Part shown: piece after piece, positions 15,001 through 18,000 of the stretch
Layout: each line of letters begins with the position of its first letter
Numbering within the stretch: position 1 is the first letter of the stretch
Virus record (IMG/VR): IMGVR_UViG_2541047936_000002
Coordinates: 1 to 21,866 of that record
DNA from: a virus
Taxonomy: Duplodnaviria; Heunggongvirae; Uroviricota; Caudoviricetes
Length of the DNA stretch: 21,866 nt
Strand: one strand, 5' to 3'
Made by a program: the position numbers

Positions 15001-18000
15001 CTGGTGGGTGTTGGTAGCACCTGCCAGCCATTCGCTCATGCTTACTGGTCACAAGCGAACCATGGCCCACTGCTTTAGCGCAAAAGCAGAGTGAGCCTAC
15101 CAGAGTTACGCTTACTGATCCATGAAAAATACTGTAAAAATAAACAGTGTTGATTTAATCAACGCTGATTGCCTGCATTTTATTCAGTCCCTGCCTGATG
15201 ATTCCATTGACCTGATTGTTACCGATCCGCCGTACTTCAAGGTGAAACCCAACGGCTGGGACAATCAGTGGAAAGGGGACGAAGATTACCTTAAGTGGCT
15301 GGACCACTGTCTTGCGCAGTTCTGGCGGGTGCTGAAACCTGCAGGAAGTCTATACCTGTTCTGTGGGCATCGCCTGGCATCTGACACCGAAATCATGATG
15401 CGTGAGCGGTTTAACGTGCTGAACCATATCATCTGGGCAAAGCCGTCCGGACGCTGGAACGGGTGTAACAAGGAAAGCCTGCGGGCGCATTTTCCGGCCA
15501 CAGAGCGCATTCTGTTCGCGGAACATTATCAGGGGCCGTATCGCCCGAAAGATGATGGCTGTGAGGCGAAGGGCAGGGCACTGAAACAGCATGTGATGGC
15601 CCCGCTGATTGCTTACTTTCGTGATGCGCGCGCTGCCCTGGGGATAACGGCAAAACAGATTGCAGATGCCACAGGAAAGAAAAACATGGTGTCGCACTGG
15701 TTCAGTGCCAGTCAGTGGCAGCTGCCGAACGAAAGCGATTATCTGAAATTACAGGCCCTGTTTGCCCGGGTGGCAGAAGAGAAGCATCAGCGCGGTGATA
15801 GATATGCCGGCAGGGCGGGGTCATGTCACCCTGACGTTTAATGTGTCGTCGGCCGGTGCGAACAACTGGACGCCGACAACGTACATCAGTGATTTACTGG
15901 TTGTGGTCATGAAAAAATCCACGGCAGGGATCAGTATCAGCTGACGGTTTATTAACCCGGACGGGCACCTCAGGAGGTGCCTTTTTTATTGACTGAAAAC
16001 AAAGAGGTAATCATGCGGCATTTATACGCAACGATATTATTGTTTACTACCCTGCTGGCAGGAATTGCCTTTCCTGCACAGGCTGAAAGCGGACACGGTG
16101 CATTTTCCGTGGGATATGCTCAGGTTCACCCGGGCGGCGTACCGGCATTGTCCGGTACCGGTGCGCGTGCAGGTGATTTAAAAGGGATTAATGTGAAATA
16201 CCGTTATGAGTTCACGGATCACCTGGGCGGCATTGTCGCGCTGAGTTATGCATCGGTGAAGAAAAGTGACACGATGAAGACGGGTGAAAATACCTTCCAT
16301 TATGAAAGCCTGCGCGGTCGTTATGTCAGTCTGATGGCCGGCCCTGTCTGGCAGCTCAGTGAGCGGGTCAGTCTCTATGGCATGGCCGGGATGGCGTACA
16401 CCCGCTGGTCTGACAGTGTTCAGGATTACCGGCGTGATGAAGTGAAACCGGGGTATGTGAAGGAGACCACCACCGCCAGTGATGGCCATACTGCGCGTCA
16501 TCTGTCGCCGGCCTGGAATGCCGGGATTCAGTTCAGTCCCGTAGAGACGGTGGTTATTGACCTTGCTTATGAAGGTTCCGCCAGTGGCGACTGGCGCACT
16601 GACGGCTTCATCGTGGGTATCGGCTATAAATTCTGATTAATCACGCAGGTGGTGATACTGGATGCGGATAAAAAGCAGATACAGTGCGTGGTAAGACCGC
16701 TGCAAATCCTGCGTGCTGACGGGACGTGGGAAAATATTGGCGGGATGAAGTAACCCGACAGCTTCACAAAACCGGAGTCCGGCTCCGGTTTTTGTTGTCA
16801 TGTATGGGGGCTGTTTGTTATGACTCCCTGTGTTTGGAATGAATATTTAAATAGGGAGTTTTGTCATGCCGTTAACATCAGCTATTGCATCCAATTCATT
16901 TTCCACCGGAATGCAGGTTCTTCGTGCTCAAATGCTCGCCAGTGGCGGTGGAGAAATTACAGTAGGCGGGCAGACGGTCCGTATCACATATAGTGAAACG
17001 GATGGTCGCTTTCTGGCGAGTGGGGGCAATAACAGTTTGCTTTCTGGATTATTACTTACAGGGCTTAATGGTGGTCCTGAAGCGCTCAGGGATATAATGT
17101 TAAGAATGGTTTCAGGTTCAGGTAACACACAATCACATGGTGATATTGAGGGGAAAATATCACAATGTAAGTTTTCTGTTAATACGGAGAGCCTTCAGTG
17201 TCCATCCGAGGCGGTTCGATGCCCAATTATACTGGATAAACCAGAAGAAGGTGTGTTTGTTAAAAATTCAGAAGGTTCTTTGGTTTGTACCTTATTTGAT
17301 TCGGTTTCTTTTTCTCATTTGGTTCGCGACGGTGGGAAGCACCCGCTAACACGAGAACCAATAACGTCATCAATGATTGTAAGTCAAGAACAATGTATTT
17401 ATGATCAAACCAAAGGAAACTTTGTTATAAAATAAAGTTAATATATTTTTCTATAAAGTAATATTTTACATCAGTAATCTATATCAAAACGCCACAGACA
17501 TTTAAAATATCAGATGTTGTCTGTGGCTGATATACTAAGATTATACGTGAAAGGTGCTTGACGTTACTCTGTGTTTGAACCAATCTAAGACAATACGGCT
17601 AATGCATGTATATTATTTTGATGCATTCGCTTGCTGTATGTTTTCTGATTGGCCAAATGTCCTGTCAATTAATCCTACTGGTTCTACGGGGGCATTTTTG
17701 GGAATGATCCAACCGCTTTCACTGATACTGCCTCTTGTAAGATATTTAACTTTTGCTTTGACGATAACTAAGTGATGTCCACGGCTAAATCGGTCAGCAA
17801 CGCTAATATCTGTTGTGTATTCTGGTTCAATTCTACCACTTTTTATTTGCAGTTTTGCAATATCTTCAGAAACAGGACTTACATTTGGGTTTGCAATCTC
17901 GGCTCCCCCTGCGGTACTATAAGAAACAATGTTTTCAGCCTGAGAGGCAATAGTTCCTCGGCATAATGTTACCTCTGTCATTCCTGCATCATGATCACCG

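Follow-up and report, generated by a model that had tools for sequence, protein, structure and literature searches.

The open reading frame (ORF) at positions 15122-15841 of the window (the whole stretch of 21,866 nucleotides analysed here) raises the question of why a gene for a DNA methyltransferase, with its catalytic motif near the N-terminus of the product, should end before its AdoMet-binding motifs and lie a short distance upstream of lom. The initial annotation had read this end as a likely deletion junction. Based on alignments to intact relatives, we consider it highly probable (about 0.93) that the ORF is the scar of an internal deletion in one lambdoid prophage of E. coli UMEA 3317-1, situated next to yecD, in which codon 225 of the methylase gene was joined to the last 49 codons of the tail tip gene J. 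Scaffold KE702336.1 in the 2013 draft scaffold assembly of this strain (GCA_000461215.1) has a sequence identical to that of the window. The features that make up the join are as follows:

15122-15841, plus strand: fusion ORF of 239 aa, composed of 225 methylase residues and 14 out-of-frame residues
15122-15798, plus strand: 5' remnant of the methylase gene (beta-class N6/N4 DNA methyltransferase), codons 1-225 of 352
15793-15798: deletion junction 1, a 6-bp microhomology (CGGTGA) common to the methylase and J parents
15799-15841, plus strand: out-of-frame tail of the fusion ORF, approximately 14 codons of J DNA followed by a stop, based on translation and alignment
15795-15944, plus strand: 3' remnant of the tail tip gene J, its last 49 codons and stop, with no start codon from J

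That the ORF encodes a methyltransferase with DPPY near its N-terminus, as first described, is borne out by the position of this motif (motif IV) at residues 35-38 of the 239-aa product and by a match to Pfam PF01555 (N6_N4_Mtase). The match begins at residue 29 and extends over only positions 1-104 of the 221 in the profile, leaving the domain incompletely covered; the intact homologue WP_000935558.1 (352 aa) matches positions 1-219 of the same profile. The two proteins align without a gap over residues 1-225 (ending in ...EEKHQRG), and the methylase DNA of the window is 100% identical to that of the prophage in E. coli 22-245 up to base 15798. In the intact homologue the segment KHPCEKP lies at approximately residues 282-288 and FFMGSGST at approximately residues 309-316, and both fall within the C-terminal 127 aa absent from the 239-aa product, which has neither the AdoMet-binding motif I (FxGxG) nor the HPxxKP segment that precedes it. 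The role of motif I in AdoMet binding is established, and the 239-aa hybrid, lacking both segments, is expected neither to bind AdoMet nor to methylate DNA. The beta-class N6-adenine methyltransferase M.RsrI (PDB 1NW8 and 1EG2) aligns with the intact homologue over residues 15-144, which include the DPPY region, and over residues 282-331, where KHPCEKP...DFFMGSGST of the homologue pairs with GHPTQKP...DFFAGSGVT of M.RsrI. The 239-aa product keeps the first of these aligned blocks and is entirely without the second, while the intact phage enzyme differs from M.RsrI in having a longer insert between the two.

The initial annotation was correct that the AdoMet motifs are missing, but it located the end of the protein where HPTQKP begins, whereas the break lies at codon 225 and the real motif at least 57 residues further on. 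Given this distance, the likeness of the terminal 'HPDV' to 'HPTQKP' is coincidental, and a degenerate form of that motif is ruled out, as these codons arise from out-of-frame reading of J DNA. Full-length homologues do not stop at this point; they have 352 aa and continue into the motifs, and they also rule out that the ORF is a natural short isoform of the methylase. Minus-strand ORFs within the methylase (for example 15350-15697) stem only from a mechanical ORF list, are uncalled in the source assembly and are taken as non-coding.

The position of the join is defined by both of its parents. In megablast searches of 5,426 complete E. coli genomes, over 2,800 E. coli records among the matches listed have methylase homology that stops at base 15798, and homology to gpJ and Ail/Lom begins at 15793 and continues at 100% identity to 16639 in many records. 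We aligned the window with an intact methylase locus from E. coli O121 RM8352 and an intact J-lom locus from E. coli E2865; in this three-way alignment the window tracks the methylase parent perfectly to ...GCGCGGTGA and the J parent perfectly from CGGTGAT..., and the hexamer CGGTGA is the only overlap between the two parents at the join. There are no foreign bases between the blocks, and neither an IS element nor an att site is present at the join. When breakpoint pairs were drawn at random between the methylase and J genes (200,000 simulated pairs), an ambiguous overlap of at least 6 bp was obtained in only 0.2% of them (P = 0.002), so the hexamer is unlikely to be accidental, and junction 1 thus has a breakpoint overlap longer than chance together with no mobile element. 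The join is represented by the 37-mer GAGAAGCATCAGCGCGGTGATAGATATGCCGGCAGGG. The proposal that a deletion had fused the methylase to the J-lom region therefore stands, with the breakpoint moved from the stop codon to 15793-15798.

Beyond the join, the window continues through the J-lom region to a second junction, which is an addition to the earlier account of this locus:

15963-15992, plus strand: hairpin with T-run resembling an intrinsic terminator, in the native J-lom intergenic region, within sequence shared at 100% identity with intact loci
16013-16636, plus strand: lom, encoding an Ail/Lom outer-membrane beta-barrel; intact, 207 aa as called in the source assembly
16638-16639: deletion junction 2, a 2-bp overlap (TA), two bases past the lom stop
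16640-16753, plus strand: 3' remnant of the tail-fibre C-terminal-domain gene, its last ~35 codons (Phage_fiber_C profile 30-64 of 64)

The initial annotation had noted a short frame at 15762-15944 that runs into a terminator and then lom, and each of these elements was recovered. The product of this frame matches the C-terminus of lambda J (Ig_GpJ_C profile 81-135 of 135, E = 4.6e-16), and bases 15793-15944 match, at 100% identity, the gpJ 3' ends of many E. coli prophages, which identifies the stretch as a tail-gene remnant that retains the final 150 bp of J. A complete J of ~1,150 aa with its receptor-binding C-terminal domain is not present; relatives have intact gpJ genes of 3,477 bp and, relative to the 22-245 prophage, 96% of J has been deleted. 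The remnant is predicted to be non-functional. The product of lom, on the other side of the hairpin, matches the Pfam family Ail_Lom (PF06316) over its full length (profile 1-199 of 199, E = 1.3e-49), as expected of a complete beta-barrel protein with a signal region at its N-terminus, and the gene is 100% identical in nucleotide sequence to WP_001216290.1-type loci and annotated lom genes.

To estimate what was lost we relied on E. coli 22-245 (NZ_AP038810.1, 4,703,000-4,738,500), in which a prophage of this type, apparently complete, lies beside yecD and retains both of the segments missing from the window. This locus (L004) aligned with the window in three blocks:

Window 14582-15798 and L004 1-1217: 100% identity, 0 mismatches in 1,217 bp
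Window 15793-16639 and L004 27165-28011: 99.5% identity, 4 mismatches in 847 bp
Window 16638-21866 and L004 29542-34770: 99.94% identity, 3 mismatches in 5,229 bp

The three blocks are collinear with this one intact relative and the DNA between them is missing, as expected for internal deletions. The first gap amounts to exactly 25,953 bp relative to the 22-245 prophage. The RefSeq annotation places in this gap the last 381 bp of the methylase gene, tRNA-Ile and tRNA-Arg, the genes for TerB, DUF3927 proteins and a SASA-family (NanS-type) esterase, the holin, lysozyme and Rz genes, both terminase subunits, the portal, protease, decoration and major capsid genes, and all of the tail genes, including J except for its last 49 codons. 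The absence of lysis and morphogenesis genes from the window, which the initial annotation had attributed to the deletion, is accounted for by this interval, since it holds exactly those genes. No tRNA genes were left in the window. At junction 2 the loss relative to the 22-245 prophage is 1,532 bp, comprising the N-terminal tail-fibre gene and the 5' part of the C-terminal one, and the overlap of 2 bp is compatible with chance (P = 0.16).

The size of ~26 kb is an estimate from a relative, as the 22-245 prophage is not the exact ancestor, based on the 4 mismatches in the 847 bp of the J-lom block compared with the near-perfect flanks. The J-lom allele may have a separate history. In addition, the methylase of 22-245 is itself a pseudogene (L004 541-1598) owing to a 1-bp deletion in motif I, which gives DFLWAQVQW* in place of DFFMGSGS. 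Given this frameshift, decay of the gene, or its dispensability, may predate the deletion in this phage lineage.

The best account of these observations is an illegitimate, RecA-independent recombination event at CGGTGA within a single prophage, which could have proceeded by replication slippage, or by end joining or annealing at the microhomology after a break. Such an event would have removed ~26 kb, taking with it the AdoMet-binding C-terminal third of the methylase, the tRNAs, TerB, the esterase and the genes for lysis, terminase, head and tail. The tail-fibre genes would have gone in another, small deletion on the far side of lom, which came before or after the first. Short-homology-dependent illegitimate recombination in E. 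coli has reportedly been studied by the Ikeda laboratory, and alternative end joining in E. coli is said to have been described by Chayot et al. in 2010. The junction resembles microhomology-mediated deletions of E. coli in its clean loss of DNA, its few shared base pairs and its lack of an IS element or att site, and the mechanism proposed is deduced from the scar alone.

Against a deletion within one prophage, two other origins of the junction have to be weighed, namely illegitimate recombination involving two different lambdoid prophages and the uptake of a J-lom segment from elsewhere. Prophages of O26, O111 and O145 strains match the J-lom block at 100% identity, whereas the 22-245 prophage matches it at only 99.5%. 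However, the four SNPs are accounted for equally well if lambdoid prophages had exchanged alleles by homologous recombination ahead of the deletion, and the order and orientation of the methylase, the J 3' end, lom, the tail-fibre 3' end and nleG are collinear with a single intact prophage. Furthermore, the integrase is at one end of the window and the distal cargo at the other, with the same yecD-side context as in 22-245, whereas large chromosomal segments would also be lost or inverted if illegitimate recombination had joined prophages at different sites. Based on this strict collinearity we favour a simple deletion and regard an inter-prophage origin as improbable.

Two other explanations would deny either the join or its consequence. 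A chimeric contig join might be suspected given that the source is a draft scaffold assembly, that E. coli genomes, with their many similar lambdoid prophages, are prone to mis-joins, and that the junction occurs in no other genome searched. However, the two parents have only 6 bp in common at the join, which is far under any assembler k-mer, and an independently produced Logan contig of 4,176 bp from SRR958738 is 100% identical to window 12492-16667 and crosses both junctions, although SRR958738 may be the same strain's reads, so that the contig tells against an assembler artefact and does not represent a second isolate. As a 6-bp overlap cannot mislead a k-mer assembler, and as the Logan contig agrees, an assembly error, which the initial annotation had wished to see excluded, is very unlikely. 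Even less credence, indeed next to none, can be given to the idea that the 239-aa protein is a functional natural short form or a subunit of a split methylase. Its ORF is open, DPPY is retained and its GenBank name is that of an enzyme, but its last 14 residues are out-of-frame J DNA, the segment that aligns with the HPTQKP/FxGSG region of M.RsrI is missing, the window has no partner gene for the C-terminal half of the methylase, and the exact protein is found on only two contigs among ~15 billion proteins.

Returning to the deletion within one prophage, its distribution was narrow. Junction 1 and the lom/tail-fibre junction were both absent from the 5,426 complete E. coli genomes, and junction 1 was also absent from GTDB species representatives and JGI metagenome contigs. 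The event looks private to UMEA 3317-1, and it is probably recent, given that the flanks are 99.9-100% identical to the intact relative and that the stub has no further lesions.

The remainder of the prophage retains an S24-type repressor and replication genes, including one for a DnaB-type helicase, along with the following:

1-1287, minus strand: integrase, at the opposite end of the window from the distal cargo
12541-12921: antiterminator Q
16866-17435: nleG, encoding an NleG-family type III effector of 189 aa
17613-20999, minus strand: gene for a DUF4765 protein of 1,128 aa

Copies of the nleG and DUF4765 genes with 99.9% identity occur in ~80 complete E. coli genomes. Based on its gene content, the prophage is predicted to be unable to lyse its host or to make virions. 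An ISL3-family transposase remnant (DDE_Tnp_ISL3) occupies 21394-21789, where the distal part of the prophage gives way to the yecD side of the chromosome; the annotation of the 22-245 genome lists it as a partial transposase with a frameshift.

These properties are similar to those of the defective lambdoid prophages of the O157:H7 strain Sakai, in which lysis, packaging and morphogenesis genes have been lost while integrase, regulatory genes and distal virulence-related cargo are kept. The defects of the 18 Sakai prophages (Sp1-Sp18) were catalogued by Asadulghani et al. (2009; PMC2669165), and losses in prophages of this type arise by deletion, frameshift or IS insertion. Defective lambdoid prophages that keep their cargo are the rule in pathogenic E. 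coli. What sets the present case apart is its joins, between methylase codon 225 and the 49th codon from the end of J and between lom and the tail-fibre gene, which appear peculiar to UMEA 3317-1 among the genomes searched. We regard the locus as ordinary prophage decay, a strain-private instance of a well-known process, and as a base-resolved example of decay that spares cargo (lom, nleG and the DUF4765 gene), as in the defective prophages of pathogenic E. coli. The scar is mostly of housekeeping value and raises no new biological question.

The practical consequence concerns annotation. The fusion ORF is labelled 'DNA adenine methyltransferase' in GenBank (EQY86374.1), with no hint of truncation or chimerism. 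EQY86374.1 is best treated as a fusion pseudogene and should not be counted as active in methylome or restriction-modification surveys, as its label, if uncorrected, would propagate in surveys of methylases.

Behind a candidate late promoter and terminator region at about 14500-14650, the late region of the prophage now fits within 2.9 kb: after a small ORF come the stubs of the methylase and J genes, followed by lom and nleG. It is conceivable that the two deletions made a Q-dependent late operon into a compact cargo cassette, a domesticated and selectable rewiring and not mere decay, but we consider this reading, which draws on the gene order and a terminator-like element, improbable. If it were true, SOS induction would switch on lom and the NleG effector without cell death. 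Between the minus-strand gene for a 289-aa protein and the small ORF upstream of the methylase, the DNA at 14520-14650 comprises AT-rich sequence and, downstream of it, a terminator-like hairpin with a T7 run (14627-14650); these may represent the late promoter and tR' of a Q-dependent operon. This candidate late promoter is separated from Q by two minus-strand genes (12945-13367 and 13630-14499). A promoter scan of 14400-17000 gave one consensus match compared with the 2.8 expected from shuffled sequence, and no promoter is claimed for lom or the fusion ORF.

An Rfam scan of the whole window found no structured RNA in or near the junction, and its only matches lie at 7032-7220. These are isrK (7032-7108) and a C4 antisense RNA (7133-7220), both above the gathering score and on the plus strand. 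Both are situated within the ORF at 6975-7637, the product of which matches the Pfam families Phage_ASH and Phage_pRha.
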